Sequence record: PQ821641 | Source: Escherichia phage SD6 | Strand: one strand, 5' to 3' | Length of the DNA: 40,091 nt | Notes under the pieces: generated by a model | Seen by the model: only the letters and a program-made list of their open reading frames with translations | Told to the model about the DNA's origin: nothing | Database searches by the model: none | Shown here: piece after piece, positions 1 through 18,066 of the stretch | Layout: each line of letters opens with the position of its first letter | How positions within the stretch are numbered: position 1 is the stretch's first letter | Translations under genes and position numbers: made by a program

Positions 1-97
1 ACTGACCTTAGCTACTGTAGTCAAGGACTTTAGGTAACACCTTAATAGAAGCTCACTTAGGGTCATCCTACTTATTGGTCTATCCTAGTGTCGCCTG

Positions 98-496
98 ACC
101 TACGGTCCTTGACCTACAGTGGCTGTGGCCTACAGTAGTGACGATGAGTTTTGGACCAAAAGTTTGAGACCACATCTCACAGTTCAAGAACCTCAAGTCT
201 CCCCATAGGCCCTCTTTAAGTCCAGACCAAAGGCCCTACCCGTTACTGCTCCTTGCAGTCACAGCCAGTCTATCATAAGGTTGGACCGATGGTCAAGACT
301 TCAGGTCAACGATAGGTTGAGGCTATGGCTGTAGGTCGGGACGATAGGTAGGGACTATGGGTCTTCTCTGAGTCTCTATCTGTATAGTGTTATAGTATAA
401 CATTACGTCCTACACCTACAGTCTCACTAACCTACAGTCTCACTAACCTACAGTCTCAACCATAAGACACCAACACCTACAGTCACAGACCTACAG
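98..496 (+). repeat. Left-end array of about 8 short direct repeats (core ACCTACAGT, including tandem CCTACAGTCTCACTAA units)
   Basis: Copies of ACCTAC(A/G)GT read at about 98, 112, 128, 413, 430, 445, 473 and 488; the position corresponds to the CCTAAAG-type repeat array near the T7 left end. Confidence 0.55.
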
Positions 497-608
497 TTAA
501 TAGACACAAAGCTATAGACTTAAGGTCAAAGACATGTTAGTCAAAGACTATATCCTCTTACACCATGGGGCCGACGATAGCTTAATCAATATTATTTAAG
601 ATTACCTA

Positions 609-639
609 TTGACTATATGTCTAGACTATGGCCTAATAG
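609..639 (+). promoter_or_regulatory. Host sigma70 early promoter, T7 A1-like
   Basis: TTGACT -35 followed by a 17-19 nt spacer and a TAATAG-like -10; the surrounding sequence resembles the T7 A1 region; the -10 is not unambiguous. Confidence 0.4.
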
Positions 640-749
640 CTTCCGTCAACACGACACGGCAACAACCGGATAGTGAAGACGCCGGGTCATCCCGGTTAAG
701 TAGACAGCCTGATAAGTCATACGAACAACAGGCAGATGACAGAAAGTAG

Positions 750-779
750 TTGACAAGCAGTAACGATAAGATGTAAGCT
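750..779 (+). promoter_or_regulatory. Host sigma70 early promoter, T7 A2/A3-like
   Basis: TTGACA at 750-755, 18-nt spacer, TAAGCT at 774-779, then gtaccacatcgaaac, which closely matches the sequence downstream of T7 A3; upstream CCGGTTAAGTAGACAGCCTGATAAGTC also matches the T7 early region. Confidence 0.55.
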
Positions 780-948
780 GTACCACATCGAAACAACGGT
801 GACGACCAACACTGAAATGGTCTACCTGAAGTCATCTGACTGAAGGGAATGCTCTTTAACAATCTGGATAAACTCTTAATGTGCGCCGATAGCTAGCTTG
901 CTAGCGATAGCGACTAACCACAGGGTCTTTGAGTCTACATCTGAAGGC

Positions 949-969
949 CCTGACTGATAGTCACTAACT
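949..969 (+). repeat. 21-bp element CCTGACTGATAGTCACTAACT, copy 1, just upstream of the first early ORF
   Basis: Exact 21-bp direct repeat of the element at 1265-1285. Confidence 0.5.
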
Positions 970-975
970 TAACGG

Positions 976-1176
976 ATGGACACTATGAAACACTTAAGCA
1001 CAATCACTAATCACTATGAAATATTCGTGGACACTAAAGGTTATGCGTGGATTCAGCTTAAAGAGATGAGAGGAGCGCGTCACCGTATGGTAGTGCGCAA
1101 GGTCTCAAGCAAGCCGTTTAGCAACTACAGCGTAGATACTGTGCGTATAGACAACGAGATCTACCTGATAGACTAA
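976..1176 (+). CDS. Hypothetical early protein (66 aa)
   Basis: First ORF after the host promoters, + strand; no recognisable family; not acidic like Ocr. Confidence 0.5.
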   Translation: MDTMKHLSTITNHYEIFVDTKGYAWIQLKEMRGARHRMVVRKVSSKPFSNYSVDTVRIDNEIYLID

Positions 1177-1264
1177 CAGATAACCGTGAGTCCTACAGCG
1201 AGCGCCTCAGCTCCTTATTTCGCTAACTGAAAGTGATTAACTACAGGTCGTTAACTAATAGCGG

Positions 1265-1285
1265 CCTGACTGATAGTCACTAACT
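1265..1285 (+). repeat. 21-bp element CCTGACTGATAGTCACTAACT, copy 2, followed by TATAGG
   Basis: Exact repeat of 949-969; here it runs into ACTATAGGA, a partial phage-promoter core. Confidence 0.5.
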
Positions 1286-1299
1286 ATAGGATAAACAAG

Positions 1300-1488
1300 A
1301 TGGCATACCGTAAGATGACCAAAGCAGAAGTGATAGCCGAAGTTCTTGAAACTTTCCGCGAGTTCCCTGAGACTTTCAGAGGCGATGACATAGCAAAACA
1401 GCAGTATTGGAATGACTACACAGACAGTCTCTGCAAGTCTGGCATGATTTCCAAACACCAGTATAACACTTGGTCAAACCCATTCTAA
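1300..1488 (+). CDS. Hypothetical early protein (62 aa)
   Basis: ATG with AGGA about 9 nt upstream; early-region position. Confidence 0.55.
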   Translation: MAYRKMTKAEVIAEVLETFREFPETFRGDDIAKQQYWNDYTDSLCKSGMISKHQYNTWSNPF

Positions 1489-1504
1489 CGTAAGGAATAT
1501 AACC

Positions 1505-2029
1505 ATGAAACTGATAGGCAAAGGCGCGTTCACTAAGTGCTACCTGAAGGATTGCGGGAAGCGTGTTCTTCTGGTCTCTTCTGACCCGATAAAGGAGTGT
1601 ATGGCGTGGGGATGGTTCCCTGAGTCTCCACTGTTCCCTGAAGTCAAAATGATTGAGGTAGGCACGTATGAGATGGACTACATGCCACCAACGCGAGGTC
1701 TCAAGGCGCATTTAGATGATGACCAATGGCAGCTCTATCAGGTGCTGCGTGATTGCTTCTCACGGTCTCCGGTATTCTCTCGACCTGCTGAATTGTATCA
1801 CAAGTGGTACGAGATATTCCAAGATGCACACGACAGGTCTGCGTCTGAGACTGTGCGGGAGGGCCTGATGGATGTGCTGATGGCTCTGGATGCTTGCGCT
1901 AACTTCGGGCCAGACATTCAGTTTGAGATAAGCCCACGAAATGTACGGGCTGTGAATGGTAAGCTGATACTAGTGGATTGTTTTTTCCTTATGTCCAAAC
2001 TGCAAGAGGTGAGGTCATCAAGATGGTAA
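1505..2029 (+). CDS. Putative protein kinase-like early protein (short gp0.7-like)
   Basis: 174 aa; N-terminal IGKGAFTKCY resembles a Gly-rich loop and C-terminal ISPRNV...LILVDCFF resembles catalytic-loop/DFG-like motifs; position matches T7 gene 0.7; function tentative. Confidence 0.55.
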   Translation: MKLIGKGAFTKCYLKDCGKRVLLVSSDPIKECMAWGWFPESPLFPEVKMIEVGTYEMDYMPPTRGLKAHLDDDQWQLYQVLRDCFSRSPVFSRPAELYHKWYEIFQDAHDRSASETVREGLMDVLMALDACANFGPDIQFEISPRNVRAVNGKLILVDCFFLMSKLQEVRSSRW

Positions 2030-2199
2030 CTTATGGTCTCTGCCAGCACCACGTCGCCAACGCCCGGCTTATGGTCAGGACCGGGCAGTTAAACCATGAT
2101 GCGACTATGCGTCTCCTGAAAGCGGTCTACGAGGGCCGCAAGCTCATACACGACGCTTACACGCTGAGGACAGGTAAACATGTACCAGATAACTTATAG
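2023..2199 (+). CDS. Hypothetical small early protein (58 aa)
   Basis: ATG at 2023 overlaps the upstream stop (ATGGTAA), suggesting translational coupling; the ORF track begins this frame at a TTG at 1978. Confidence 0.4.
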   Translation: MVTYGLCQHHVANARLMVRTGQLNHDATMRLLKAVYEGRKLIHDAYTLRTGKHVPDNL

Positions 2200-2305
2200 C
2201 AGTGAACAGGCGTTCTACGAGGGATGCTACGAGATGATGAAGCGCGGGGCTTGCTATGTGGCTAATCACCATAGCCTGACCATAACGCTGACAGGTGGAT
2301 ACTGA
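2180..2305 (+). CDS. Hypothetical small early protein (41 aa)
   Basis: ATG with GAGGA about 9 nt upstream; below the ORF-track size cut-off; weak call. Confidence 0.25.
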   Translation: MYQITYSSEQAFYEGCYEMMKRGACYVANHHSLTITLTGGY

Positions 2306-2376
2306 GCGATAGACGAGAGGTCATCTAACTGATAGGTGGCCTCAAAGATTATCACTTAAATTGATAGGAGTTAACT

Positions 2377-2481
2377 ATGAGCACTGCAATCATCTGGACT
2401 ATCTCAGGCTTCGTAGCGTGGGGAATGTTTACTCTAGTAGGCAAACTACCAGTACTTACTCAACTGTTATGGGGTTTATGA
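2377..2481 (+). CDS. Hypothetical small hydrophobic peptide (34 aa)
   Basis: AGGAG 6-7 nt upstream of the ATG; hydrophobic sequence MSTAIIWTISGFVAWGMFTLVG...; its stop overlaps the next start. Confidence 0.35.
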   Translation: MSTAIIWTISGFVAWGMFTLVGKLPVLTQLLWGL

Positions 2482-2681
2482 CTATGGATATCGCACTATT
2501 GATAGCCATAGGCTATGGACTTATAGTCTACGTGCTGGTGAGAGACATCAACAAAGCGCGTAAAGTCTACAAATTCAACTATGTACGTCTGGGTCGCTGG
2601 ACTGTGCGCCAACCTAACGGACAATTCGTGCGCAACTTAGCGAACGTCTGGGATATAGCAACACTTGGGAGCAAACTATAA
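2478..2681 (+). CDS. Hypothetical small membrane protein (67 aa)
   Basis: ATGA overlap with the upstream ORF; predicted transmembrane segment IALLIAIGYGLIVYVLV. Confidence 0.45.
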   Translation: MTMDIALLIAIGYGLIVYVLVRDINKARKVYKFNYVRLGRWTVRQPNGQFVRNLANVWDIATLGSKL

Positions 2682-3007
2682 TGAACAAGTCATACGGGAT
2701 CAATCTGGTACACTCTATGGACGCAGACATGCAAATGCTAAGCCTACTGGCTACCGGGTATCGTCACGGAACGTCAAGTCACTCCGCACGTCAACAGCAG
2801 GAGAGGGACCGGGTACTGCAAGCAAGACTCCGGGCTGAGGGACATAAGTCCGAACTGATGTGTCTGGCGTATGGTGGACGACCAATCGCCGACGATGGTA
2901 AACTTCTGGTCTCAGGCTGGAAGGCGATAGACCAACGGTCAACCCTCAAGCACACGACTCACGGTGACTTCAGTCATCTTCACGCTAACCCACTGATATG
3001 CAAGTAA
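2681..3007 (+). CDS. Hypothetical early protein (108 aa)
   Basis: TAATG overlap with the upstream ORF; no recognisable family. Confidence 0.5.
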   Translation: MNKSYGINLVHSMDADMQMLSLLATGYRHGTSSHSARQQQERDRVLQARLRAEGHKSELMCLAYGGRPIADDGKLLVSGWKAIDQRSTLKHTTHGDFSHLHANPLICK

Positions 3008-3014
3008 TTCTGAC

Positions 3015-3034
3015 TTAACTATCACTATAGGACT
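3015..3034 (+). promoter_or_regulatory. Phage-RNAP promoter-like sequence directly upstream of the RNAP gene
   Basis: TTAACTATCACTATAGGACT shares the upstream half with the promoters at 26425 and 39668 and the ACTATAGG core with all others. Confidence 0.5.
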
Positions 3035-3100
3035 CAAGGTCTAAGACTCCAAGTGAAAGACCAAAGAGACTCTAAGTGAAAGACTAATAACAAGGACTTT
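3031..3100 (+). promoter_or_regulatory. Possible RNase III processing site (R1-like) in the RNAP leader
   Basis: Contains the GACTCAAGGT motif shared with the other putative RNase III hairpins, plus internal repeats CTAAGACTCCAAGTGAAAGAC / CTCTAAGTGAAAGAC. Confidence 0.3.
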
Positions 3101-3104
3101 AAGT

Positions 3105-5786
3105 ATGAGCGTCATCTCTATTGACAAACACGACTTCTCTGATGTGTCGAACGCTATTGAGCCGTTCAACCTGCTGGCTGACCATTACGGGCAAGACCTT
3201 GCAGTCAAACAGCTTCAACTTGAGCATGAGGCATATAGTGAAGGCGAGCGACGTTTCATCAAGAACCTTGAGCGCCAGACAGAGCGCGGGGAACTGGCAG
3301 ACAATCAGGTCGCCAAGCCTTTGATGCAGACTCTGGTCCCTAAGATTGCGCAAGCCGTCAAGGAGTGGCATGAAGGTCCAGACGGGAAGCTGTCAACCTC
3401 TCGTCCTAGCGTAGCGTTCACCATGTTGAGCACTGAAGAGAAGGCCGTCAAGGACCGCTCTCTGCGTATCTCTTGCGAGTCTGCTGCAGTTATTATACTG
3501 AAGGTCATCCTCTCCAAGCTGGTCAAGCCTGAAGGGATACCGATTACACCGATGGCCTCAGCGATAGGTCGCACACTTGAGGACGAAATCCGATTCGGTC
3601 GCATCCGTGACAAGGAGAAGGAGCACTTCAAGAAGGCGATAGCTGAGAACCTGAACAAGCGAGCTGGGGCATCCTACAAGAAAGCCTACATGCAAGCGGT
3701 TGAGGCCTCCATGCTGGAGCAGGGCCAACTGGAAGATGCGTGGGGTACTTGGAGTCCGACCGAGGCGGTACACGTTGGAATCAAGATGCTTGAGATTGTC
3801 ATCCAGTCCACACAACTGGTCGAGCTTAAGCGTTATGGTGCTGGCAATGCAGCGGCTGATGTTGAGATGGTCCACCTGTCAGACTTCTGGGTCAAGAAGA
3901 TGGCACAACGAGGATTCAGCCTTGCGGGTATCGCTCCAGTCTACCAACCTTGCGTCGTTCCACCTAAGCCGTGGACTGGTGTCGTAGGCGGGGGGTATTG
4001 GGCCAAAGGACGCAGACCTCTACCACTGATTCGCTTAGGGTCTAAGTCTGCGGTGGCACGTTACGAAGACGTGTACATGCCTGAAGTCTATGACGCTGTG
4101 AATATCATCCAGAATACACCTTGGAAGGTGAACAAGAAGGTTCTGGACGTGGTGAACATGGTTGAGAAGTTGAACAACACGCCTATTGATGACATCCCTC
4201 AGATGGAGCCATTGAAGCCTGAAGACTATGCGGGTGAGACTGAAGAGGAGCTCAAGGCATGGAAGAAATCTGCTGCTGGTATCTACCGCCGAGAGAAGGC
4301 CCGGCAGTCACGCAGATTGTCACTGAGCTTTATCGTTAACCAAGCGAACAAGTTCTCTCAGTTCAAGGCCATCTGGTTCCCATACAACATGGACTGGCGC
4401 GGTCGAGTCTACGCTGTACCGATGTTCAACCCTCAGGGTAACGACATGCAGAAGGGTCTCCTTACTCTGGCAGTCGGTAAGCCTATTGGTGCTGATGGTT
4501 TCAAATGGCTGAAGGTCCACGGTGCAAACTGCGCGGGTGTCGATAAAGTCACCTTCGAGGAGCGAATCAAGTGGGTGGAAGACAACCACGACAATATCAT
4601 GTCTGCTGCTAAGGCACCGATGGATAGTATTGAGTGGTGGGGCAAGCTAGACTCTCCGTTCTGCTTCCTTGCGTTCTGCTTCGAGTATGCTGGCGTAATG
4701 CACCACGGCTTGTCTTACTCCTGCTCGCTGCCGATAGCGTTCGATGGGTCCTGCTCTGGGATTCAGCACTTCAGCGCGATGCTTCGTGACCACATTGGTG
4801 GACATGCAGTGAACCTGACGCCATCCGGTAAGGTCCAAGACATCTACCGCATCGTGTCTGATCGCATTGAGGAGGAGCTTAAAGTCCTGCTGGTTAACGG
4901 TACTGACAACGAGGTGGTTACCCACGAGGACAAGAAAACTGGTGAGATTACCGAGCGTATCAAGCTAGGGACACGAGAGCTGGCCCGTCAGTGGCTGACC
5001 TACGGTATGTCACGCAAGGTGACTAAGCGTTCGGTCATGACTCTGGCCTACGGGTCGAAAGAGTATGGCTTCGCAGACCAAGTTTACGAGGACATCGTGA
5101 TGCCAGCGATTGACTCAGGGTCTGGAGCTATGTTCACTGAACCAAGCCAAGCATCTCGCTTCATGGCTAAGATGATCTGGGAAGCTGTGAGTGTGACCGT
5201 AGTTGCTGCGGTTGACGCGATGAAGTGGCTTCAAGGTGCTGCCAAGCTGCTGGCTGCTGAAGTGAAGGACAAGAAGACTGGAGAAATCCTGAAGCCTTGC
5301 CTTCCGGTACACTGGGTCACACCTGATGGTTTCCCGGTCTGGCAGGAATACCGCAAGAAGGATACCACTCGTCTGAATCTGATGTTCTTAGGTTCATTCA
5401 ACCTTCAACCTACGGTCAACAAAGGCGCGAAGAAAGAGCTGGATAAGCACAAGCAGGAGTCAGGCATTAGCCCGAACTTCGTCCACTCACAAGATGGTAG
5501 CCACCTACGCAAGACTGTAGTCCACACTCATCGCAAGTATGGCGTGATGTCATTCGCAGTGATTCATGATAGCTTTGGGACCATCCCTGCTGACGCTGAG
5601 TATCTATTCCGTGGTGTCCGTGAGACGATGGTCGAGACCTACCGCGACAACGATGTGCTGCTTGACTTCTATGAGCAGTTCGAATACCAGCTTCATGAGA
5701 GTCAGCGCGACAAGTTACCTGAGCTTCCGAAGAAAGGTAAACTGAATATCGAAGACATCTTGTCTTCAGACTTTGCATTCGCTTAA
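3105..5786 (+). CDS. T7-type single-subunit DNA-directed RNA polymerase (gene 1)
   Basis: 893 aa, collinear with T7 RNAP from the N terminus (FSD...FN.LADHYG) to the C-terminal SDFAFA, including the PCVVPPKPWTG and IHDSFGT motifs. Confidence 0.98.
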   Translation: MSVISIDKHDFSDVSNAIEPFNLLADHYGQDLAVKQLQLEHEAYSEGERRFIKNLERQTERGELADNQVAKPLMQTLVPKIAQAVKEWHEGPDGKLSTSRPSVAFTMLSTEEKAVKDRSLRISCESAAVIILKVILSKLVKPEGIPITPMASAIGRTLEDEIRFGRIRDKEKEHFKKAIAENLNKRAGASYKKAYMQAVEASMLEQGQLEDAWGTWSPTEAVHVGIKMLEIVIQSTQLVELKRYGAGNAAADVEMVHLSDFWVKKMAQRGFSLAGIAPVYQPCVVPPKPWTGVVGGGYWAKGRRPLPLIRLGSKSAVARYEDVYMPEVYDAVNIIQNTPWKVNKKVLDVVNMVEKLNNTPIDDIPQMEPLKPEDYAGETEEELKAWKKSAAGIYRREKARQSRRLSLSFIVNQANKFSQFKAIWFPYNMDWRGRVYAVPMFNPQGNDMQKGLLTLAVGKPIGADGFKWLKVHGANCAGVDKVTFEERIKWVEDNHDNIMSAAKAPMDSIEWWGKLDSPFCFLAFCFEYAGVMHHGLSYSCSLPIAFDGSCSGIQHFSAMLRDHIGGHAVNLTPSGKVQDIYRIVSDRIEEELKVLLVNGTDNEVVTHEDKKTGEITERIKLGTRELARQWLTYGMSRKVTKRSVMTLAYGSKEYGFADQVYEDIVMPAIDSGSGAMFTEPSQASRFMAKMIWEAVSVTVVAAVDAMKWLQGAAKLLAAEVKDKKTGEILKPCLPVHWVTPDGFPVWQEYRKKDTTRLNLMFLGSFNLQPTVNKGAKKELDKHKQESGISPNFVHSQDGSHLRKTVVHTHRKYGVMSFAVIHDSFGTIPADAEYLFRGVRETMVETYRDNDVLLDFYEQFEYQLHESQRDKLPELPKKGKLNIEDILSSDFAFA

Positions 5787-5802
5787 CAACAGGAGAGACA
5801 AC

Positions 5803-6003
5803 ATGCAATTCGCACACCGTGTATCAAACGTATCTGGTGGCAACAAGGTAGTGACCGTAACCTCAGTGGCGGGCAAAGGTCTGGTCAAGGTGACTATGGT
5901 CCCGACTGGAACGGCTAAGGACAAAGGTATCAGCCATAAGGAGCTGATTCAGGTGATCCAGTGGGCACACGAGAAGGCCCTACGGGAAGAGGCAACCAAA
6001 TGA
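5803..6003 (+). CDS. Hypothetical protein (66 aa)
   Basis: ATG at 5803 with AGGAGA 6 nt upstream, immediately after the RNAP gene. Confidence 0.55.
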   Translation: MQFAHRVSNVSGGNKVVTVTSVAGKGLVKVTMVPTGTAKDKGISHKELIQVIQWAHEKALREEATK

Positions 6004-6077
6004 CAGACCTACAGTTACTGGCCTTGTGGCTGGGAGCACTAGCAGTATTCACTTTAATCCGACGCAGAAGAGGTTAA
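6000..6077 (+). CDS. Hypothetical small transmembrane peptide (25 aa)
   Basis: ATGA overlap with the upstream stop; hydrophobic core followed by RRRRG; weak call. Confidence 0.25.
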   Translation: MTDLQLLALWLGALAVFTLIRRRRG

Positions 6078-6100
6078 CCTAAACTATCACTATAGGATTA
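6078..6100 (+). promoter_or_regulatory. Phage promoter (phi1.1-like)
   Basis: CCTAAACTATCACTATAGGATTA matches the window-wide promoter consensus. Confidence 0.7.
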
Positions 6101-6145
6101 GACTCAAGGTCATGACTCAAAGTCGTGGCCTTCATGATTAACCCT
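6101..6145 (+). promoter_or_regulatory. Putative RNase III site (R1.1-like hairpin)
   Basis: GACTCAAGGTCAT...GTGGCCTTCATGATTA; AAGGUCA can pair with UGGCCUU; same architecture as the elements at 13588 and 37264; T7 has R1.1 at this position. Confidence 0.5.
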
Positions 6146-6171
6146 ATAACCTAAACAACTGGAGCTACAAC

Positions 6172-6351
6172 ATGTATCAGAACACTATCAACTTCGAGCG
6201 CATCCGTGAACGTCAGAAGACTGAAGGTTACATTCCGAAGGGCCGCAAGCTGAACAAGACCAAGCGTGGCGGCGGTGTCAAGGGTGCCTTCCGTAACGCT
6301 GAGGGTAAAGACTCTCTGGTTAACCAAGCGAAATACTTCGCAGGAGCATAA
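6172..6351 (+). CDS. gp1.1-like small basic protein
   Basis: 59 aa; contains KGRKLNKTKR, as in T7 gp1.1; correct syntenic position. Confidence 0.65.
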   Translation: MYQNTINFERIRERQKTEGYIPKGRKLNKTKRGGGVKGAFRNAEGKDSLVNQAKYFAGA

Positions 6352-6355
6352 TGAT

Positions 6356-6643
6356 ATGGGAATGTTCTCAAGAGCACATAGTGGAAACCTGAACACCCTG
6401 CGTAAAGCCATCCACAACTGGCAGTCCGAGACAGACTATAACGCAGTGGTCAGCACTTGGTTTGACACGGTGATGAACAGGCACTGCGTCCGGGCGGTTA
6501 TAGTCCACATTCATACACGAGAGGTCCTCATCGAGAAGGACTTCACGGACTACCCGAATATCCACGACGAAGATGTGCAGACAGTAGCGGTTGCCACTTG
6601 GTTTAACAAACAGTTCAACGACTACACTGGTCGATTCCTTTAA
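6356..6643 (+). CDS. gp1.2-like protein (putative host dGTPase inhibitor)
   Basis: 95 aa from ATG 6356 with AGGAG about 9 nt upstream; SGNL and HDEDV motifs as in T7 gp1.2; the ORF track extends this frame upstream from a GTG. Confidence 0.7.
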   Translation: MGMFSRAHSGNLNTLRKAIHNWQSETDYNAVVSTWFDTVMNRHCVRAVIVHIHTREVLIEKDFTDYPNIHDEDVQTVAVATWFNKQFNDYTGRFL

Positions 6644-6660
6644 TTCTGGAGACACTAACG

Positions 6661-7701
6661 ATGACAACTATCAAAACTAACCCGCACCGCGCTGTAGATT
6701 ACTCTGAGTCTGGCATTAAGAAGGCACTGGAAGCAGCCGGGTCTCTGGAAGCTGAAGTGAAGTATGATGGTGTCAGGTTGAATATTCCGGTGCTGCGAGA
6801 GGGTGAGACCTATTGGTTAAGCCGTGAGTCTAAACCGCTTCCAGCACTGGAGTGGATGAACTCTGAGTTAGGCAATGCGTGGACTCAAGCTGACTGGCGA
6901 TGGTTCCTGCGTCAAGCTGGGTACGAAGGCGTGGGCCTGATGATTGACGGAGAGGTCATGGTAAAAGGTGTTGACTTTAACACGTCTTCCGGTCTCATCC
7001 GAACGAAGTGGCTGAAGCCTAGCAACGAGGAGTTCGCTGAATGTTATCCGGGCCGTGGCAAGAAGGTCCCATTCTGGGTCGCACGGTCACTACTTCAGGT
7101 TGTGGTATATGGCGTTGTTGATATGACAACCATAGCAGACCCGAAAGCCGAAGGTCCTATCCATAGCGTAACCCGACTGAAGGCCGAAGCCATCGTCCCT
7201 CTCCTCCAGAAATACTTCCCGGAAATCGACTGGGTTCTGTCTGAGTCACACACGGTCTACGACCTTGAGTCGCTCAACTCCCTGTACGAAGAGAAGCGTC
7301 TTGAAGGACATGAGGGTCTGGTAGTCAAGGACCCGCTTGGTAAATACAAGCGTGGCAAGAAGTCAGGCATGTGGAAGATGAAGCCTGAGGAGACCATCGA
7401 CGGGACCGTGTGTGGACTCGTGTGGGGGACTCCGGGAAAGGCTAACGAAGGTAAGGTGATTGGCTTCGAGGTGCTGCTTGAGGATGGCATGATGGTTAAC
7501 GCCTGCGGTCTGACTGAAGAACAGAAGGATGAGTTTACGGAAGCCTGTAACACTGATACATATATTCTCGGTGGAATCAATCCATACGAAGGATGGCAGT
7601 GTGAAGTCCTCTTCATGGAGCGGTTCCCAGATGGTTCCCTTCGTCATCCTAGCTTCAAGTGCTGGCGTGGAACGGAAGACAATCCAACCGTTAAGAGTTA
7701 A
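6661..7701 (+). CDS. ATP-dependent DNA ligase (gene 1.3)
   Basis: 346 aa; T7-ligase-like IKTNP...KYDGVR (adenylation lysine), GEVMVKGVDFNTSSGL, EGHEGLVVKDP and GSLRHPSF motifs. Confidence 0.97.
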   Translation: MTTIKTNPHRAVDYSESGIKKALEAAGSLEAEVKYDGVRLNIPVLREGETYWLSRESKPLPALEWMNSELGNAWTQADWRWFLRQAGYEGVGLMIDGEVMVKGVDFNTSSGLIRTKWLKPSNEEFAECYPGRGKKVPFWVARSLLQVVVYGVVDMTTIADPKAEGPIHSVTRLKAEAIVPLLQKYFPEIDWVLSESHTVYDLESLNSLYEEKRLEGHEGLVVKDPLGKYKRGKKSGMWKMKPEETIDGTVCGLVWGTPGKANEGKVIGFEVLLEDGMMVNACGLTEEQKDEFTEACNTDTYILGGINPYEGWQCEVLFMERFPDGSLRHPSFKCWRGTEDNPTVKS

Positions 7702-7712
7702 CTAAACGTCAA

Positions 7713-7753
7713 CCCAGTGGTCTTCTGACTGCTGGGATTCTTTGCTTTGTGTT
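7713..7753 (+). terminator. Putative early intrinsic terminator (TE-like) after the ligase gene
   Basis: Hairpin CCCAGUGG-loop-CUGCUGGG with G-U pairs, followed by the U-rich AUUCUUUGCUUUGUGUU; T7 TE lies at the equivalent position. Confidence 0.45.
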
Positions 7754-7784
7754 AGCAAGATATTGTCCGGCCGGCGGCCTGAAC

Positions 7785-7803
7785 CTAAACTATCACTGTA
7801 GGA
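7785..7803 (+). promoter_or_regulatory. Phage promoter, ACTGTAGG variant
   Basis: CCTAAACTATCACTGTAGGACAA. Confidence 0.6.
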
Positions 7804-7832
7804 CAACCATAACCGACCAAAGGAGAAACCTT

Positions 7833-8087
7833 ATGTCTAAAAACTTAATGTTCAACCGATTTACTCGAAGCTTCCACCTGTCGCATAGCCCATTCAGCTT
7901 CCATAAAGCTAATCAACCATTACCCCGCTTTGGTAAGACAGTGGCTCTGTCTCCAGCAGTTCATGCGCTAGTCACCCGCAAGTCTATGCTGAAGGCTATG
8001 GATAAAGAACAAGTTGATGTGCCTGTGGTCGTTACAAAATGGCCTCGCATTAAGCTGGCACTTCTGGTAATTAAGGAGGCGCTCTGA
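7833..8087 (+). CDS. Hypothetical protein (84 aa, gene 1.5/1.6 position)
   Basis: ATG at 7833 with AGGAGA upstream; the ORF track starts this frame at an upstream non-ATG codon. Confidence 0.55.
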   Translation: MSKNLMFNRFTRSFHLSHSPFSFHKANQPLPRFGKTVALSPAVHALVTRKSMLKAMDKEQVDVPVVVTKWPRIKLALLVIKEAL

Positions 8088-8422
8088 TGACATACTGTGA
8101 TAGCACCACATACTGTGAAGCGTGTAATGGTGACGACCGCTTCCCTCACGTTGGTAAACTTGTAGGTAACAAACTCCAAGAAATTGATGGTGTACGAAAG
8201 CCATCCCACTATCAGGTCTTTGACGGTGTGGAATCCATTGAGATTATCGCTCGGTCCATGACTGTCAGTGAGTTCCGTGGGTTCTGCATTGGTAACGTCC
8301 TGAAGTATCGACTCCGAGCTGGCAAGAAGTCAGAGCTGGCGACTATGGAGAAGGACCTGAGCAAAGCAGCCTTCTATCAGGAGCTGTTCGACCTGCATAA
8401 AGGTAAGTGTTATGACTCATGA
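8087..8422 (+). CDS. gp1.7-like protein (DUF3310-type; putative nucleotide kinase)
   Basis: 111 aa; KPSHY...IEIIARSMTVSEFRGFCIGNVLKYRLRAGKKSEL...DLSKAAFYQELF resembles the T7 gp1.7 C-terminal region as remembered; N-terminal CxxxxxCxxC cluster. Confidence 0.65.
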   Translation: MTYCDSTTYCEACNGDDRFPHVGKLVGNKLQEIDGVRKPSHYQVFDGVESIEIIARSMTVSEFRGFCIGNVLKYRLRAGKKSELATMEKDLSKAAFYQELFDLHKGKCYDS

Positions 8423-8639
8423 AGAACTTAAAGCTGTAGGGGTGAAGCGTAGAGCGCTCAGTTTTTACCGAGCATACAAGGCGCTACGTAAGGGTATGTT
8501 AGCGTTCTCATTAGGACACAGTGAGTATTGTGACTATGACCTACTACCGTTTGCTTATATGAAGACTCCTAGTATGATTATTAGGGTAGAGGAGTATGAC
8601 CATTCTGACGACTGTGTAATGGTGAACAGATATGCTTAA
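8412..8639 (+). CDS. Hypothetical protein (75 aa)
   Basis: Start overlaps the upstream ORF end. Confidence 0.5.
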   Translation: MTHEELKAVGVKRRALSFYRAYKALRKGMLAFSLGHSEYCDYDLLPFAYMKTPSMIIRVEEYDHSDDCVMVNRYA

Positions 8640-8730
8640 ACCGAGTGAGTGGTGCGAGCGTAAATTTGAGGAGACAGGTAACGTCGATTACCTTCAGCTC
8701 TACAACTTATGGAAGGAGCGAGGTTTATGA
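8632..8730 (+). CDS. Hypothetical small protein (32 aa)
   Basis: ATG overlaps the upstream stop and its TGA overlaps the gp2 ATG (ATGA); weak call. Confidence 0.25.
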
Positions 8731-8885
8731 CTGAGGTTGAGAAGAAATACATCGTGGAGCTTGAGGGTAGCGTTCAGTCCTTCGAGGTCCCGGTGTACGC
8801 AAAGTCTCTTGAAGAGGCTACCCTGAAGTCCCAAGAGTATGAGGACGCTGGGTTTGTGGTCGGACGGATTCGTCCTGAGACCTAA
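8727..8885 (+). CDS. gp2-like inhibitor of host RNA polymerase
   Basis: 52 aa; [14 protein letters not shown]...GFVVGRIRP matches T7 gp2 SFEVPIYAETLDEA...GFEVTRVRP; below the ORF-track size cut-off. Confidence 0.8.
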
Positions 8886-8902
8886 ACTATCACTGTAGGA
8901 CA
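8881..8902 (+). promoter_or_regulatory. Phage promoter, ACTGTAGG variant, upstream of the SSB gene
   Basis: CCTAAACTATCACTGTAGGACA overlapping the gp2 stop. Confidence 0.6.
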
Positions 8903-8943
8903 TACGTCCAGTTCGTAACTTTTAAATTAGGAGATTTACACCG

Positions 8944-9642
8944 ATGGCTAAAGAGCAACTGAAGACTTTCACCACTCCGGTAGCTGGTATCGTTGAGCCT
9001 TACGCATGGCTGAACAAAGCAGACACCAAGTTCAACGAGCGTGGTGAACACAAAGTCAACCTGACGTTCGACCTGAGCAACCCGAAGGTCCGTAAGATGA
9101 TTGATGTCTTACAGAAGATTCACGACGATGCGTATGCGAAAGCACTCGCAGACCACGAGAAGAACCCACCTCAGGTTCAGCGTGGCAAGAAGCCTATTGA
9201 ACCACGAGAAGGCGACATGCCGTGGATTGAGAATGGTGACGGTACTGTTACCCTGAAGTTTAAATGCTTCGCGTCTTACCTGAAGGATGGTAAGTCAGAG
9301 CCTATCGTATTACGGTTCTACGACACCGATGCTAAGTTAATCCGTGACGTCCCGAATATTGGCGCTGGCTCCAAACTGAAGGTCAAGTTTAAAGTCCTGC
9401 CGTTCAAGTGGAACGCTGCGACTGGTGCAAGCGTTAAGCTCCAGCTTGAGTCCTGCCTTCTGGTAGAACTGAAGGAGTGGAAAGGTGATGGTGCTGGTGG
9501 CGATGGTGGCTGGGGTGATGATGAAGACCTAGGCACTGGCTACAAAGCGTCAACCGATGGCGACTTCGGGTCTGATGACTTTGGTGACGATGGTTCAGAA
9601 GGTGGTGACGACTCCAACTCTGGTGGCGATTACGACTTCTAA
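8944..9642 (+). CDS. Single-stranded DNA-binding protein (gene 2.5)
   Basis: 232 aa; homologous to T7 gp2.5 along its length (GKKP...EGDMPW, VKLQLES) with an acidic C-terminal tail ending in F. Confidence 0.95.
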   Translation: MAKEQLKTFTTPVAGIVEPYAWLNKADTKFNERGEHKVNLTFDLSNPKVRKMIDVLQKIHDDAYAKALADHEKNPPQVQRGKKPIEPREGDMPWIENGDGTVTLKFKCFASYLKDGKSEPIVLRFYDTDAKLIRDVPNIGAGSKLKVKFKVLPFKWNAATGASVKLQLESCLLVELKEWKGDGAGGDGGWGDDEDLGTGYKASTDGDFGSDDFGDDGSEGGDDSNSGGDYDF

Positions 9643-10094
9643 TGGCCCAATGGTCTGCAAAACGGGGGCACTCTGTGGGTGCCTACCGCTCTGGACTTGA
9701 AGCCAAGAACCAGCAGTGGCTGGAACAGAACGGCGTCAAAGCGGAGTACGAAAGCCATTATATCAACTATGTGATTCCGGCTTCCGACCACAAGTACACA
9801 CCAGACTTTATCCTTCCTAACGGTATCATCGTGGAGACCAAAGGTATCTTCGATAGTGATGACCGTAAGAAGCACCTTCTGGTACGAGAACAGCACCCAG
9901 AGTTAGACATTCGGTTCGTGTTCTCCAGTTCCCGCTCCAAGTTATACAAAGGGTCTCCGACCACGTATGGAGCATGGTGCGAAAAGAACGGCTATAAGTA
10001 TGCCGATAAGTTCATCCCGGTTGAGTGGCTTCGAGAGGCGACTGTACGTCTGCCTTCAGGTATACTCATCCCCAAGAAGAAAGGAGTTAAGTGA
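9642..10094 (+). CDS. Endonuclease I, Holliday-junction resolvase (gene 3)
   Basis: 150 aa; YTPDF.LPNGI.VETKG...DDRKKHLL.REQHPELDIR.VFSSSR.KLYKGSPT.YG as in T7 gp3. Confidence 0.95.
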   Translation: MAQWSAKRGHSVGAYRSGLEAKNQQWLEQNGVKAEYESHYINYVIPASDHKYTPDFILPNGIIVETKGIFDSDDRKKHLLVREQHPELDIRFVFSSSRSKLYKGSPTTYGAWCEKNGYKYADKFIPVEWLREATVRLPSGILIPKKKGVK

Positions 10095-10549
10095 TGACTA
10101 CCTGTAAAGACCTTGAAGTTGGAACACGTTACAGATTCTCAAAGAACACCCTGCTGAATAACCCCCAATTCACTGATGCTGTTTTCGAAAAGCGAGAAGA
10201 CCATAGCGTAATTGTGGAGAAGGGGTGGCATCCTGAGGATTACATCGGTGAGACTACCGGCTGGAATGGTCACGAGACCTACAGTGTAGAAGTTGTTGAA
10301 CATCCTCAAGTCCTGCCAGCCTCAAGCGTCCCTCCCGTCACCGTTAAACGTGAAGTCCTGACCATCAACAAGATTGGTGTAGGTCAGACGTTCATCGTCC
10401 ACGGTAAGCCTGACGAAGTGTACGTGAAGATTAGCAACTCTCACGTCTTCAACCATAAGTTGCTCCAGATGCACACGACTGACGCACATCGCTTCCAGTC
10501 ACATCTGAATCTGGTGGTAGTAGAGCTCGTTGTTTATAATGGAAAGTGA
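10091..10549 (+). CDS. Hypothetical protein (152 aa) inserted between endonuclease I and lysozyme
   Basis: Overlaps the endonuclease stop; no T7 counterpart at this locus; no recognisable family. Confidence 0.6.
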   Translation: MMTTCKDLEVGTRYRFSKNTLLNNPQFTDAVFEKREDHSVIVEKGWHPEDYIGETTGWNGHETYSVEVVEHPQVLPASSVPPVTVKREVLTINKIGVGQTFIVHGKPDEVYVKISNSHVFNHKLLQMHTTDAHRFQSHLNLVVVELVVYNGK

Positions 10550-10910
10550 CTGCATCGAGTGGGCTAAGAGTCGCAATAAGGATGGCTATGGTAGACGTAA
10601 ATTCCGTGGTCAATCTATGGGTGCTCATAGAGCAGCTTGGATAGAGACCAATGGTGCTATACCGGGAGGTCTTGTCGTAAGACACAAGTGTGATAACCGT
10701 GCATGCGTAAACATTGAGCACCTTGAGTTGGGGACTCAGGCAGAAAACATGATGGACTGCTCAGTACGCAGGACATTTAATTCAAAACTAACTGAAGATG
10801 ACGTTAAGGATATTCGCACCTCAAGCGAGACCCTTAAGTTTATGGCTGAAAAATACTCAGTAAGTGAGACAACCATAAGTCGAATCAGGAACCACAAGAG
10901 GTGGAAATAA
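10539..10910 (+). CDS. HNH homing endonuclease
   Basis: 123 aa from ATG 10539; HNH-type motif RHKCDNRACVNIEHLELGTQAENM; paralogous to the HNH at 29818. Confidence 0.85.
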   Translation: MESDCIEWAKSRNKDGYGRRKFRGQSMGAHRAAWIETNGAIPGGLVVRHKCDNRACVNIEHLELGTQAENMMDCSVRRTFNSKLTEDDVKDIRTSSETLKFMAEKYSVSETTISRIRNHKRWK

Positions 10911-10912
10911 TA

Positions 10913-11371
10913 ATGGGAAGTAAAGTACAATTCATGCCACGCAAGTCAACTGACGCTATCTTCGTTCACTGTTCGGCTACCAAGCCAGATATGGACATCG
11001 GGGTAGAGACCATCCGTATGTGGCACAAGCAGCAAGGCTGGCTGGACGTAGGCTACCACTTTATCATCAAGCGTGATGGCACTGTGGAAGAGGGACGCCC
11101 GGTCAATGTCGTAGGGTCACACGTTAAGGACTGGAACTCCAAGTCCGTAGGCGTCTGCCTTGTAGGTGGAATCAACGCTAAGGGTCAGTTTGAAGCTAAC
11201 TTCACTACAGCCCAGATGAACTCCCTGCGCAAAAAGCTGGCTGACCTGAAGGCATTGTATCCACAGGCAGAAATCAAAGCACACCATGACGTAGCGCCTA
11301 AAGCCTGTCCAAGTTTTGACTTGCAACACTGGCTATCTACCAATGAACTGGTCACTTCCGACCGTGGATAA
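10913..11371 (+). CDS. N-acetylmuramoyl-L-alanine amidase / T7-type lysozyme (gene 3.5)
   Basis: Near-collinear with T7 gp3.5: STDAIFVHCSATKP, WLDVGYHFIIKRDGTVEEGR, HHDVAPKACPSFDL, NELVTSDRG. Confidence 0.95.
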   Translation: MGSKVQFMPRKSTDAIFVHCSATKPDMDIGVETIRMWHKQQGWLDVGYHFIIKRDGTVEEGRPVNVVGSHVKDWNSKSVGVCLVGGINAKGQFEANFTTAQMNSLRKKLADLKALYPQAEIKAHHDVAPKACPSFDLQHWLSTNELVTSDRG

Positions 11372-11394
11372 TAAACTCTAAGGAGAACAGCTAA

Positions 11395-11610
11395 ATGATT
11401 AAACTCATCGAATTTCTTGGTCGTCTGGTGGTGCGTGGCTATCGTCGTGCTGCGGTACTGGAACGAAAGGTAGAAAAGAAGACTGCTGACGGTGCGGCTG
11501 ATGCTGCTGCTCTGGCTGACAAGTTGGCCATCGCGTCACTGGAAGCTGGCATGAAGGCACGTCAAGCTGACACCAAAGCTGACCAGTTGGCTCAGTTCTT
11601 CAAAGACTAA
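11395..11610 (+). CDS. Hypothetical protein (71 aa)
   Basis: AAGGAG upstream of the ATG; Ala-rich, probably helical; lies between the lysozyme and primase genes. Confidence 0.6.
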   Translation: MIKLIEFLGRLVVRGYRRAAVLERKVEKKTADGAADAAALADKLAIASLEAGMKARQADTKADQLAQFFKD

Positions 11611-11626
11611 ACTATCACCTTAGGGA
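11607..11626 (+). promoter_or_regulatory. Phage promoter variant (ACCTTAGGG core) upstream of gene 4
   Basis: CTAAACTATCACCTTAGGGA differs from consensus at two core positions. Confidence 0.45.
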
Positions 11627-11675
11627 TGGGACCACGAGTCCTGTCCCTCTGTTCGCATTATTGATTAAGGAGTGA

Positions 11676-13379
<1,704 letters not shown>

Positions 13380-13420
13380 GCGTGATATAGCTGATTATAA
13401 GAATTTATGGAGGACCGTTA

Positions 13421-13585
13421 GTGCTAAAGAAACTTAAAGCTCGCTACCATCGGTTCATGTACAAATGGTGGAGCGATGAAGCAACCTGCCTGTCGAACAT
13501 TCTGGGAGACCAAAGGTTCGACTCTAAGGCATGGAAGAAAGCTAACCGGAAGTTTATGTATCACTTCTTGCGTACAGACTTCTAG
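13421..13585 (+). CDS. Hypothetical small protein (54 aa, GTG start)
   Basis: GGAGG about 6 nt upstream of a GTG; fills the gap between gene 4 and gene 5; weak call. Confidence 0.3.
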   Translation: MLKKLKARYHRFMYKWWSDEATCLSNILGDQRFDSKAWKKANRKFMYHFLRTDF

Positions 13586-13587
13586 GT

Positions 13588-13632
13588 CTAGACTCAAGGT
13601 CATTCACATCGAGTGGCCTTTATGATTAGACT
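13588..13632 (+). promoter_or_regulatory. Putative RNase III site (R4.7-like hairpin) upstream of the DNA polymerase gene
   Basis: TAGACTCAAGGTCAT-TCACATCGAG-TGGCCTTTATGATTAGACT, imperfect inverted repeat with the shared GACTCAAGGT motif. Confidence 0.5.
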
Positions 13633-13648
13633 AAACGGAGGATTAACC

Positions 13649-15820
13649 ATGTTTGACCTTAAGAGTATCTGGGGTTCTGACATCGAGACCAACGGTCTCC
13701 TTGATACAGTCTCCCAGTTTCACTGTGGGGTCCTGATTAACGCCGAGTCGAATGAGACCCTTAAGTATGGGGTAGCTCCGATGGTCGGTATCGTCGGCGG
13801 CTTCAAAGAGTATGTGCAGAAGGTGGAAGAGATTGCCGCATCACCTGATGGTATGCTGGTATTCCACAACGGTATCAACTATGACGTCCCGGCTATTGAC
13901 AAGCTGAAGCGTCTGTACTTTGGGAAACGATTTAACTTCCCGAAACACAAGATGATTGATACCTTGGTGCTGGGCCGCTTGATGTATCCCAACATTAAGT
14001 TCTCAGACATGGGTGCGGTGAAAGCTGGTCGTCTACCACCTAAGATGATGGGACGCCAGTCTCTTGAGGCTTGGGGCTATCGTCTAGGTGAGATGAAGGG
14101 TGAATACAAACACGATTACGTTGCCAAGTGCAAGGCCGAAGGTATCGAATATAAGTCTGGGGACGAATGGTTGTTCCCCTCTCAAGAGATGCTGGACTAT
14201 AACGTTCAAGACGTTGTGGTCACACTGGCGTTGTTCAAGAAGTTCCTGACTGACAAGTATTACTTCCAGTCTGAACAGTCCGCTTTCGAACAGATTTATG
14301 CGTTGCGCCTGGAACATGATGCTGCGTGGACCTGTGCGAAGATGGAGCGTAACGGCTATCCGATGAACACCGAGATGGTCGAAGGCTTATATCGTGAACT
14401 TACTGTCAAACGTGCGGAGTTGCTGGACAAGCTGCGCTCGACTTTCGGTAGCTGGTATGCACCAAAGGGAGGCAAGGAGTTCTTCAGGCATCCACGGACA
14501 GGTAAGGACCTTCCGAAGTATCCGAGAGTCGTGTATCCCAAGGTCGGTGGCATCTTTAAGAAGCCTAAGAACAAAGCTCAACGCTTAGGTCTTGAACCTT
14601 GTGAACTCGATACGCGAGACACGATGGAGGGAGCACCGTTCACGCCAATCACTTACGTTGAGTTTAATCCGGGAAGCGGAGATCACTTAGCGAAAGTCCT
14701 GATGGAGCGTGGGTGGGAGCCTGTGGACTTCACTGACACCGGGAAACCTGTAGTCGATGACGAGACGCTAGAACACGTTAAGTTACCAGACGCAGAGGCT
14801 CAGGCTTGCGTAGAGCTGGTCCGTGAGTATCTGGTAGTCCAGAAGCGCATCGGTCAGGCGGCTGAAGGTAAGAACGCATGGTTGAAACTTGTAGGTCCAG
14901 ACGGACGTATGCACGGTTCAATCAACCCATGCGGGGCAGTAACCGGACGTGCTACTCACAGTTCACCAAACATGGCTCAGGTCCCGGCTAACGGTGCTCC
15001 ATATGGTGAGACTTGCCGTGGTGCTTTCGGTGCAGCGTGGAACAAGAAGGATGGTAAGCCAGACCCTTGGATTCAAGTAGGTGTGGATGCCTCAGGTCTT
15101 GAGCTTCGTTGTCTGGGGAACCGAGCGGCTCCGTTTGATGGTGGTGCATATGCGAAGACTGTGGTCGAAGGTGACATCCACTGGGCCAACGCAGTCAACG
15201 CTGGGTTAGCACCTAACGTCCCACGCGATAAGTCGAACCACGACCATGAGGCTTTCCGTAACAACGCTAAGACGTTCATCTATGCGTTCCTGTACGGTGC
15301 AGGGGCCGCTAAGATTGGACTGATAGTCGGTGGCGGTAAGAAGGAAGGTTCAGCTCTCATGAAGAAATTCATTGAGGGTACACCAGCCATCAAAGACCTC
15401 AGGGAAGCTGTGAGTAATACGTTAATCTCAGACTCTAAGTGGGTGGACGGTGAGAACATCGTCAAGTGGAAACGCCGTTGGTTGCGTGGACTTGATGGTC
15501 GCCGTATCCACATCCGGTCGCCACACTCAGCACTTAACGCATTACTTCAAGGTGATGGTGCGGTAGTCTGTAAGCACTGGATGGTGCTGACGGAGAAGAA
15601 ACTTGAGGAAGCTGGCTACGGTAACGGCTGGGATGGTGACTTTGCGTTAATGGCTTGGATTCACGACGAATTACAGATTGCGTGTCGTACTCAGAAGATA
15701 GCCGAAGATGTCGTCCGTATTGCACAAGAGGCAATGCGCGAGGTAGGGCGCTTCTATAACTTCAAGTGTGAGCTTGATACGGAGGGTAAGATTGGACCAA
15801 CGTGGAAAGAATGTCACTGA
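13649..15820 (+). CDS. DNA polymerase (gene 5, family A)
   Basis: Collinear with T7 gp5 (SDIETN exonuclease motif, RQSLEAWGYRLGEMKGEYK, NAKTFIYAFLYGAG, WIHDE); ATG 13649 with GGAGG upstream is preferred over the ORF-track start at 13613. Confidence 0.97.
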   Translation: MFDLKSIWGSDIETNGLLDTVSQFHCGVLINAESNETLKYGVAPMVGIVGGFKEYVQKVEEIAASPDGMLVFHNGINYDVPAIDKLKRLYFGKRFNFPKHKMIDTLVLGRLMYPNIKFSDMGAVKAGRLPPKMMGRQSLEAWGYRLGEMKGEYKHDYVAKCKAEGIEYKSGDEWLFPSQEMLDYNVQDVVVTLALFKKFLTDKYYFQSEQSAFEQIYALRLEHDAAWTCAKMERNGYPMNTEMVEGLYRELTVKRAELLDKLRSTFGSWYAPKGGKEFFRHPRTGKDLPKYPRVVYPKVGGIFKKPKNKAQRLGLEPCELDTRDTMEGAPFTPITYVEFNPGSGDHLAKVLMERGWEPVDFTDTGKPVVDDETLEHVKLPDAEAQACVELVREYLVVQKRIGQAAEGKNAWLKLVGPDGRMHGSINPCGAVTGRATHSSPNMAQVPANGAPYGETCRGAFGAAWNKKDGKPDPWIQVGVDASGLELRCLGNRAAPFDGGAYAKTVVEGDIHWANAVNAGLAPNVPRDKSNHDHEAFRNNAKTFIYAFLYGAGAAKIGLIVGGGKKEGSALMKKFIEGTPAIKDLREAVSNTLISDSKWVDGENIVKWKRRWLRGLDGRRIHIRSPHSALNALLQGDGAVVCKHWMVLTEKKLEEAGYGNGWDGDFALMAWIHDELQIACRTQKIAEDVVRIAQEAMREVGRFYNFKCELDTEGKIGPTWKECH

Positions 15821-15851
15821 CCATCGAACCAAGACCTTGCGTTTCCACACA

Positions 15852-16145
15852 ATGCCTACTGGATGTATCGTCTGCGTGTCCCACAAGAGGAACCAAGATG
15901 GATACTTCCGGTATTCTATGGGAAGCTACAGGAAGGGCAACAAGTTCGCCTTCATGTTTCACAGATGGGTGTGGGAACAGAAGCGTGGGCCTACACCAGA
16001 TGGCTATGAGATAGACCATTTGTGTTTGAATCGTGGGTGCTGTAACGTAGAGCACCTACAGTGTATTCCAAAGCGTGAGCACGTCATCAAGACGAACCGT
16101 GAGCGCAAACTTATTAAGAAGGAGAAAGATAATGGCTATTACTAA
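15852..16145 (+). CDS. HNH homing endonuclease
   Basis: 97 aa from ATG 15852; classic motif GYEIDHLCLNRGCCNVEHLQCIPKREH; directly follows the polymerase gene. Confidence 0.8.
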   Translation: MPTGCIVCVSHKRNQDGYFRYSMGSYRKGNKFAFMFHRWVWEQKRGPTPDGYEIDHLCLNRGCCNVEHLQCIPKREHVIKTNRERKLIKKEKDNGYY

Positions 16146-16428
16146 ACGTTTTAAAGTGTCATTCGAAATGACCGTAAAGGTTGACTCTGAGACTGAAGAT
16201 ATGCTTAAGGAACGCATCTTGGATTTGGCTCGCAGCGTTTGTGATGGTGAGTCCATAAATGCACAGGACAAAGAGTTACTCGTACAGGCCCTTACTCATG
16301 GTGCCGATGGTGCTGTTGCCTTTACTGTTAAGCATGGCGTTCGTAATATAATCCGTGAGATAGGCATTGAGCACCACGGAGAGGGAATTAAGTTTGCACC
16401 AGCAACTATTCGTGAGGTCAAGCAATGA
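16132..16428 (+). CDS. gp5.5-like protein
   Basis: 98 aa; ATG 16132 with AAGGAG upstream; N terminus MAITKRFKVSFEM; assigned by synteny and a remembered resemblance to T7 gp5.5. Confidence 0.6.
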   Translation: MAITKRFKVSFEMTVKVDSETEDMLKERILDLARSVCDGESINAQDKELLVQALTHGADGAVAFTVKHGVRNIIREIGIEHHGEGIKFAPATIREVKQ

Positions 16429-18013: not shown

Positions 18014-18066
18014 ATCTAACCGATAGTCATATCCTATCAATCCAACAGTCATCCATAGGTGAAACA

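Follow-up and report, generated by a model that had tools for sequence, protein, structure and literature searches.

A probable T7-type concatemer junction, with its terminal repeat collapsed to one copy, in the K1F-like genome of Escherichia phage SD6

The sequence record of Escherichia phage SD6 (PQ821641; 40,091 bp, analysed here at full length and called the window) appears to be one genome unit that was assembled as a circle, with its direct terminal repeat (DTR) collapsed, and then opened 174 bp to the left of that repeat. Very probably, bases 40058-40091 and 1-640 together form the concatemer junction of a K1F-like phage of the T7 type, and as such the junction adds one more case to a known architecture. 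By alignment to relatives, the physical left end does not coincide with position 1, and bases 1-174 are right-end sequence; we predict that virion DNA starts on the left at 175 (TCTCACAGTT) and stops on the right at 376 (...GAGTCTC). The coordinates of the features discussed are collected in Table 1. Comparison with known phages places the window as a Kayfunavirus genome (K1F-like, Studiervirinae): 393 phage records match its first 1500 nt, and the best 40 of these by query coverage are Kayfunavirus and other Studiervirinae at no more than 94% identity, and its last 1092 nt (39000-40091, comprising the 3' part of gene 19 and the sequence downstream) share 96-98% nucleotide identity with many Kayfunavirus records.

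The ends were located by joining the window's last 700 and first 1300 bases and comparing the resulting junction with relatives. Position 1 of Escherichia phage K1F (NC_007456), whose record is linear, corresponds to window 175 and its last base, 39704, to window 376; positions 2 and 40673 of KM02 fall on the same two bases, as do the left and right ends of Citrobacter phage SH3 (KU687349), which were fixed by run-off sequencing of virion DNA (PMC4925675). All three genomes have TCTCACAGTT at the left end and ...GAGTCTC at the right, and window 175-183 reads TCTCACAGT, in agreement with the family DTR start TCTCA(C/T)AGT. The 174 bases preceding the right DTR of K1F (which starts at K1F 39527) align to window 1-174, and both K1F and SH3 read ...GACGCTACTCT and then ACTGACCTTAGC... 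unbroken across the point corresponding to 40091/1. The same step is contiguous in the permuted records OZ035794 (3486/3487), MT862763 (7556/7555) and OR594184 (2250/2251), and also in MZ311861 (17856/17855) and OZ035813 (3194/3195). Past window 40091, several GenBank records continue for 174 bp and stop there or after one further DTR, and the LM33_P1 record is opened at window 182/183. The end mapping in relatives and the contiguity of 40091 with 1 thus argue that 175-376 is a single collapsed DTR and that 1-174 is the right end; the initial annotation had taken the window to start at the left end, or inside the terminus, and homology with K1F, SH3, KM02 and T7 moves that end to 175.

No second copy of 175-376 occurs anywhere in the window, and no direct repeat joins its first and last 600 nt, the best direct match being only 10 nt and the best match overall an inverted one of 11 nt. 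The initial annotation was therefore right that the two ends do not resemble each other, and its suggestion that a right-hand repeat had been collapsed or trimmed in assembly agrees with the single copy at 175-376. T7-like concatemers contain one DTR copy per junction, the second being made during maturation, and short-read assemblers routinely delete the DTRs of T7-like phages or place them mid-contig (PMC10438801).

Two other accounts of the ends fare badly. That position 1 is the true left end, with a DTR starting at base 1 and its right copy trimmed, is highly improbable: the window does begin and finish in non-coding DNA, and a few records start within ~20 bp of it (position 19 of PQ390404 is window 1), but K1F and SH3, which have their ends 174 bp rightward, run unbroken through the step from 40091 to 1 in their interior, the T7-family end motif TCTCACAGT stands at 175 and not at 1, and base 1 forms part of a conserved inverted repeat. 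The initial annotation had also raised a different end structure; under headful packaging with circularly permuted DNA, or with cohesive ends, no DTR would be expected, and ends without a visible repeat would fit. This too has very little probability, since the large-terminase region is 96-98% nucleotide-identical to that of relatives whose short DTRs have been mapped, every boundary motif of a T7-type junction is present and conserved, and DTR collapse is a documented assembly artefact in the subfamily (PMC10438801).

Table 1. Features at and around the predicted concatemer junction of the window, with the genes and promoter to its left
Feature	Position	Strand	Basis or detail
Small terminase subunit, gp18 homolog	36998..37261	+	phrog_1351, E = 1e-34
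Large terminase subunit, gp19 homolog	37809..39572	+	phrog_38, E = 8e-132
Phage-RNAP promoter at T7 phiOR position, AACTATCACTATAGGGAAG	39672..39694	+	one of 8 consensus copies
Gene 19.5 homolog, 52 aa, last gene before the junction	39870..40028	+	phrog_2193, E = 6e-25
Start of conserved right-end block (counterpart of T7 SRR region), continuing at window 1	40058..40091	+	alignments
11-bp perfect inverted repeat, CTAAGGTCAGT / ACTGACCTTAG	40062-40072 / 1-11		loop 19 nt
Right-end unique sequence, directly left of the DTR in the concatemer	1..174	+	alignment to K1F and SH3
Long imperfect palindrome	arms 12-35 and 98-138		right arm holds the three motif copies
Right-end short-repeat array (SRR counterpart)	98..136	+	ACCTACGGT (98), ACCTACAGT (112), GCCTACAGT (128)
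Single collapsed DTR copy, predicted 202 bp	175..376	+	end mapping in K1F, SH3, KM02
24-bp insertion within the DTR relative to K1F and SH3	242..265	+	alignment; identical in LM33_P1
TATCTGTA, positional homolog of T7 class II pause/termination signal	377..384	+	6/7 bases of ATCTGTT
Left-end short-repeat array (SRL counterpart)	414..497	+	5 x ACCTACAGT
Conserved element TTAATAGACACAAAGCTATAGACTTAAGG at T7 phiOL position	498..527	+	aligns between SRL array and A1
A1-like host (sigma-70) early promoter	609..637	+	TTGACT, 17 nt, CCTAAT

Exact terminal repeats measure 160 bp in T7, 178 bp in K1F, 184 bp in SH3 and 176 bp in KM02, and the predicted 202 bp of the window exceeds the 178-184 bp of K1F and SH3 because of the insertion listed in Table 1. 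It lies in the DTR centre (~242-300), which is hypervariable among relatives, with indels. Separately, the right half of the DTR holds ACGATAGGTnnGGnCTATGG twice (309-328 and 341-360, 32 bp apart); relatives retain this repeat family, which the IMG/VR relative L026 carries in multiplied form, and L026 also has extra tandem GGGACTATTGGTCAACGATAGGT units in the DTR centre. Another arrangement was seen in the record of Providencia phage EPr2 (OM256482; L007/L008), with four 179-bp 'direct terminal repeat' annotations (at 1, 501, 40583 and 41083) and ~320 bp of right-end sequence repeated at its left end; it looks like an assembly-duplicated junction and not a real structure.

The junctions of T7, T3, K11 and K1F have four features in common: the DTR starts with TCTCA(C/T)AGT, it ends with ...TCTCTG(T/A)GTC(C/T)C, (T)ATCTGT(T/A) follows directly past it, and both of its flanks carry one motif in the same orientation, namely CCTAAAG in T7 and T3, ACCTGAG / CCTGAGG in K11, and CCTACAG in K1F and in the window. 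On these shared features we identify the arrays of the window as the K1F-lineage counterparts of the SRR and SRL arrays of T7, so that the analogy originally drawn with the T7 array beside the terminal repeat was well chosen, the same layout being found in T7, T3, K11 and K1F. The closest likeness is to K1F and SH3, both of the genus Kayfunavirus, which nearly match the window throughout the right-end block and over the first ~67 bp of the DTR, and in which the DTR is bounded in the same way (TCTCACAGTT at its start, GAGTCTC at its end with TATCTGTA immediately after), and ACCTACRGT copies occupy the same places on both sides of it; the window differs from both in having one DTR copy instead of two and in being opened 174 bp to the left, and its left array has five exact copies where K1F has four and SH3 has units and an array length of its own.

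In T7 (NC_001604) the order of elements is said to have been set out by Dunn and Studier in 1983 as SRR, 160-bp terminal repeat, pause site, SRL, phiOL and A1/A2/A3. The window resembles T7 in element order, in the DTR start TCTCACAGT, in the signal abutting the DTR end, in the same-orientation repeats on both flanks and in the A1-type promoter downstream. It differs in its motif (CCTACAG(T) against CCTAAAG), its signal (ATCTGTA against ATCTGTT) and its DTR length (202 against 160 bp), in a DTR free of exact motif copies (the T7 DTR has three), and in the lack of a convincing phiOL. Klebsiella phage K11 (Przondovirus) and phage T3 (Teetrevirus) have boundary motifs and flanking arrays like those of the window, around DTRs of 180 bp and 231 bp respectively; both have an annotated phiOL, and positions 180-188 of the K11 record are annotated as 'concatemeric junction'.

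The repeat motif is strongly concentrated at the junction. ACCTACRGT matches exactly at 15 places in the window; 100 dinucleotide-preserving shuffles give an expectation of 0.73, and no shuffle had more than 3. Seven of them, all on the + strand, lie within bases 1-500 (at 98, 112, 414, 430, 446, 475 and 489), where ~0.01 copies would be expected; the motif density of the remaining genome predicts 0.1 per 500 bp, with a probability of ~2e-11 for seven or more. With the near-exact GCCTACAGT at 128 as an eighth copy, the first count of about eight ACCTAC(A/G)GT copies at the start of the window is borne out. At 414-458 the tandem unit is ACCTACAGTCTCACTA (Tandem Repeats Finder: 2.8 copies, period 16 bp, 100% matches) and not the 15-bp one originally described, which does occur in some relatives; the remaining neighbouring copies are spaced 14 or 16 bp apart.

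These copies, first taken for a single array, appear from the alignments to be two, split by the DTR and belonging to opposite ends of the genome, with three copies to the left of the DTR and five to the right, all in the same (+) orientation. The three right-end copies (98-136) are non-tandem and keep their positions in all aligned relatives, and the left array consists of three tandem 16-bp units (414-458) followed by a pair 14 bp apart (475 and 489). The initial annotation had put a single array ahead of the early promoters. The hexamers TTGACT (609) and TTGACA (750) do lie downstream, and it is only the notion of one array that has to give way to two around the DTR. CCTAAAG, the SRL/SRR heptamer of T7, is absent from the + strand of 1-600; the unit of the window, (A)CCTACAGT(C), is a one-base variant of it, and the two are elements of one kind with motifs that differ by lineage. 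Two other roles for the motif were considered and set aside: as part of a host promoter, TTGACC-16-TACAGT was flagged at 109-136, but the three hits of the promoter scan against 2.3 expected amount to chance, and as part of a phage promoter it finds no match, the consensus TAAACTATCACTATAGG being unrelated. As to a structured RNA, no Rfam family reached threshold anywhere in the window.

The extent of the unit was defined from 83 left-array units of 17 relatives, which are related by descent and slippage, so that their information content overstates the independent evidence; ~10 unrelated contigs that a 16-mer scan of viral contigs brought up as well were left out (L031, L032, L035-L037 and L041-L046). 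Outside the search pattern, A at position -1 is kept in 93% of these 83 units, T at +7 in 99% and C at +8 in 82%, and the spacer positions mostly carry well below 1 bit (at most ~0.8). Constraint at -1, +7 and +8 with mostly free spacers defines the real unit, as judged from these alignments, as ACCTACAGTC, ~10 bp or about one helical turn. The left arrays of relatives hold 2-7 copies over 84-263 bp with a tandem spacing of 14-16 bp, and not one of the 83 units is reversed. Their spacers (CTCACTA, CCTACA, CTAACCA, CTAACTA) differ between phages and are uniform within each, which points to turnover driven by slippage with the motif held constant, and this suggests selection on the motif. A sharply bounded 10-bp motif with mostly free spacers and lineage variants at fixed positions around the terminal repeat has, at the level of sequence, the signature of a recognised site.

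Outside the junction, eight more exact ACCTACRGT matches are scattered through the genome body (4998, 5408, 6007, 10277, 16054, 19780 and 24180 on the + strand, 38844 on the - strand), a number far above the shuffle expectation, and seven of the eight are on the coding strand. These copies are mostly within genes and have no common flanks. K1F has four body copies on the + strand and one on the -, and T7 has none; the T7 heptamer, for its part, is not enriched inside the T7 genome. Four of the six body sites that can be aligned are kept in K1F and two are mutated, which makes a function for the body copies doubtful, and the 8-mer CCTACAGT has no strand bias (5/5). We therefore set aside a genome-wide role for these eight, mostly genic copies, with their unshared flanks and unbiased CCTACAGT, and record them as a weak side observation.

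The block that begins to the left of the DTR is strongly conserved in our alignments: in sets of 11 and of 7 relatives it hardly varies outside a loop patch at 40073-40085, and from 40058 to ~241 the sequence is almost invariant in all relatives fetched, even where the DTR centre cannot be aligned. The 11-bp inverted repeat in this block straddles the cut point of the record, the window having been opened at the 3' edge of the loop. Its stems are invariant in all relatives and its loop occurs as three haplotypes of 19-23 nt, and this suggests a hairpin or cruciform, or else a binding site with dyad symmetry. Folded as single-stranded DNA, 40055..174 gives -32.8 kcal/mol (z = -3.5), a stability reached by none of 200 shuffles. 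When the inverted repeats on the left of the DTR were examined for covariation, no compensatory changes were seen, the stems being invariant in every relative fetched. The left arm of the longer palindrome contains degenerate motif copies in reverse orientation, including ACCTAAAGT, of T7 type, on the minus strand at 27-35.

To the right of the DTR, the element TATCTGTA occupies the place of the T7 pause signal. The DTR end ...CCCT is followed by ATCTGTT in T7 and T3, ...CCC by TATCTGTT in K11, and ...CTC by TATCTGTA in K1F; CTATCTGTA is invariant in 11 of 11 relatives, and ATCTGTA occurs only once on the + strand of the window. ATCTGTT is the class II signal of T7 RNAP at the T7 concatemer junction and is reported to be strictly sequence-specific, and the window's ATCTGTA differs from it in the last base. 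As a positional homolog, TATCTGTA is a putative signal for a K1F-type polymerase.

Between the left array and A1 no good-quality phage promoter was found at the phiOL position. The conserved element there, TTAATAGACACAAAGCTATAGACTTAAGG, shares CTATAG with the phage's own promoter consensus but only 2 of 10 bases upstream, and by its sequence is probably not a functional phage promoter; it may be a phiOL relic or part of a secondary replication origin. It was also noticed that TTAATAGACACAAAGCTATAGACTTAAGG retains TTAATA and CTATAG, but with the wrong spacing. Although present in T7, T3 and K11, phiOL is probably non-essential to the T7-type family. Further right, TTGACT at 609 aligns with the A1 -35 region of T7, T3 and K11 (a generic scan missed this A1-like promoter because its -10 hexamer lacks an A at position 2), and TTGACA at 750 resembles T7 A3.

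The phage promoter consensus, A[AC]TATCACTATAGG, has eight copies in the window, all on the + strand, and is that of K1F and SH3 as well. The copy at 39672, whose position equals that of the annotated phiOR in T7 and K11, reads rightward through the gene 19.5 homolog into the junction; this gene has the same location as T7 gene 19.5 and K11 gp19.5. Elsewhere in the genome, the T7-type RNA polymerase gene (3105-5786) has a full-consensus phage promoter 87 bp upstream (3018-3040), a layout also found in K1F (promoter at 2479, polymerase gene at 2566), and the T7 annotation has no phage promoter ahead of gene 1; a promoter so placed would let the polymerase boost its own synthesis. Two overlapping promoter cores (CTATAGGGACTATAGG), 9 bp apart, were also noted at 26430-26455, upstream of an ORF at 26477-26959.

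All the cis-elements needed for processing of the T7 type have positional homologs in the window, and a course of events can be sketched by extension from T7 biology. Replication would give head-to-tail concatemers with one DTR per junction, and the phage polymerase, starting from the phiOR-like promoter, would pause at the signal just beyond the DTR. The terminase would then recognise right-end sequences (pacB) and cut where the DTR begins and ends (pacC). Repair synthesis would supply the other DTR copy, and the inverted repeats on the left of the DTR may form a hairpin intermediate in this step; a hairpin end is said to have been proposed as a processing intermediate by Chung et al. in 1990. 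Virion DNA would accordingly be expected to run from 175 through 40091 and 1 to 376, ~40,293 bp in all, with 175-376 at both ends. In the concatemer gp18 recognises PacB and gp19 cleaves at PacC (PMC9860248); the gp18 homolog of the window is thus a candidate reader of the junction, and its gp19 homolog would be expected to be the predicted cutter at the terminal repeat boundaries.

What the short repeats do is a separate matter. Our search of the literature on SRL and SRR of T7 yielded nothing useful, and two papers on other T7-like genomes treat DTR length only; to our knowledge the function of these repeats has not been demonstrated in T7, and we know of no protein in the T7 group identified as a reader of the motif. 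The reading we prefer, while giving it somewhat less than an even chance, is that the repeats are ~10-bp protein recognition sites that aid junction processing or packaging. A more specific proposal, that ACCTACAGTC is the K1F-lineage version of a Studiervirinae-wide site read by a phage protein that organises junction processing, is put forward more tentatively still.

Ranking second, and in our judgement unlikely, is that the ACCTACAGT arrays arose by replication slippage and persist beside the DTR without a function. Copy number and array length vary widely among close relatives, the units in one phage are often identical including the spacer, as is typical of recent slippage, and a T7 mutant without gene 19.5 and the adjacent right-end element is reportedly viable, which would also count for it. 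Slippage by itself sits poorly with a motif that stays constant while spacers differ between phages, with an orientation never reversed in 83 units, with three right-end copies that are non-tandem and invariant in position, and with the use of the same two array positions in four genera, each with lineage-specific motif variants.

Third, and less probable again, the repeats would be pacB-type gp18 sites, read by an oligomeric ring and setting packaging specificity. T3 and T7, which share the heptamer CCTAAAG, reportedly differ in packaging specificity (a difference attributed to Tsuchida et al., 1996), and this argues against the repeats as a determinant of terminase specificity; the cut, moreover, separates the left-end array from the genome that enters the capsid. 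In favour of gp18 are the multiplicity of the sites, their size of ~10 bp, their single orientation and their place beside the cut sites, together with the three sites inside the conserved right-end block and the statement that gp18 recognises PacB in the concatemer (PMC9860248).

The main value of these results is practical, and lies in corrected end coordinates and in a clean definition of a lineage-specific 10-bp unit. The source record is one DTR copy short and has an arbitrary start point, and the genome should therefore be annotated and re-opened as 175 to 40091 followed by 1 to 376, ~40,293 bp. If ACCTACAGTC is indeed the K1F-lineage version of a Studiervirinae-wide site, the switching of the motif between genera at fixed array positions would make SRL and SRR function accessible to motif swaps, and the decades-old question of the role of SRL and SRR would become testable.
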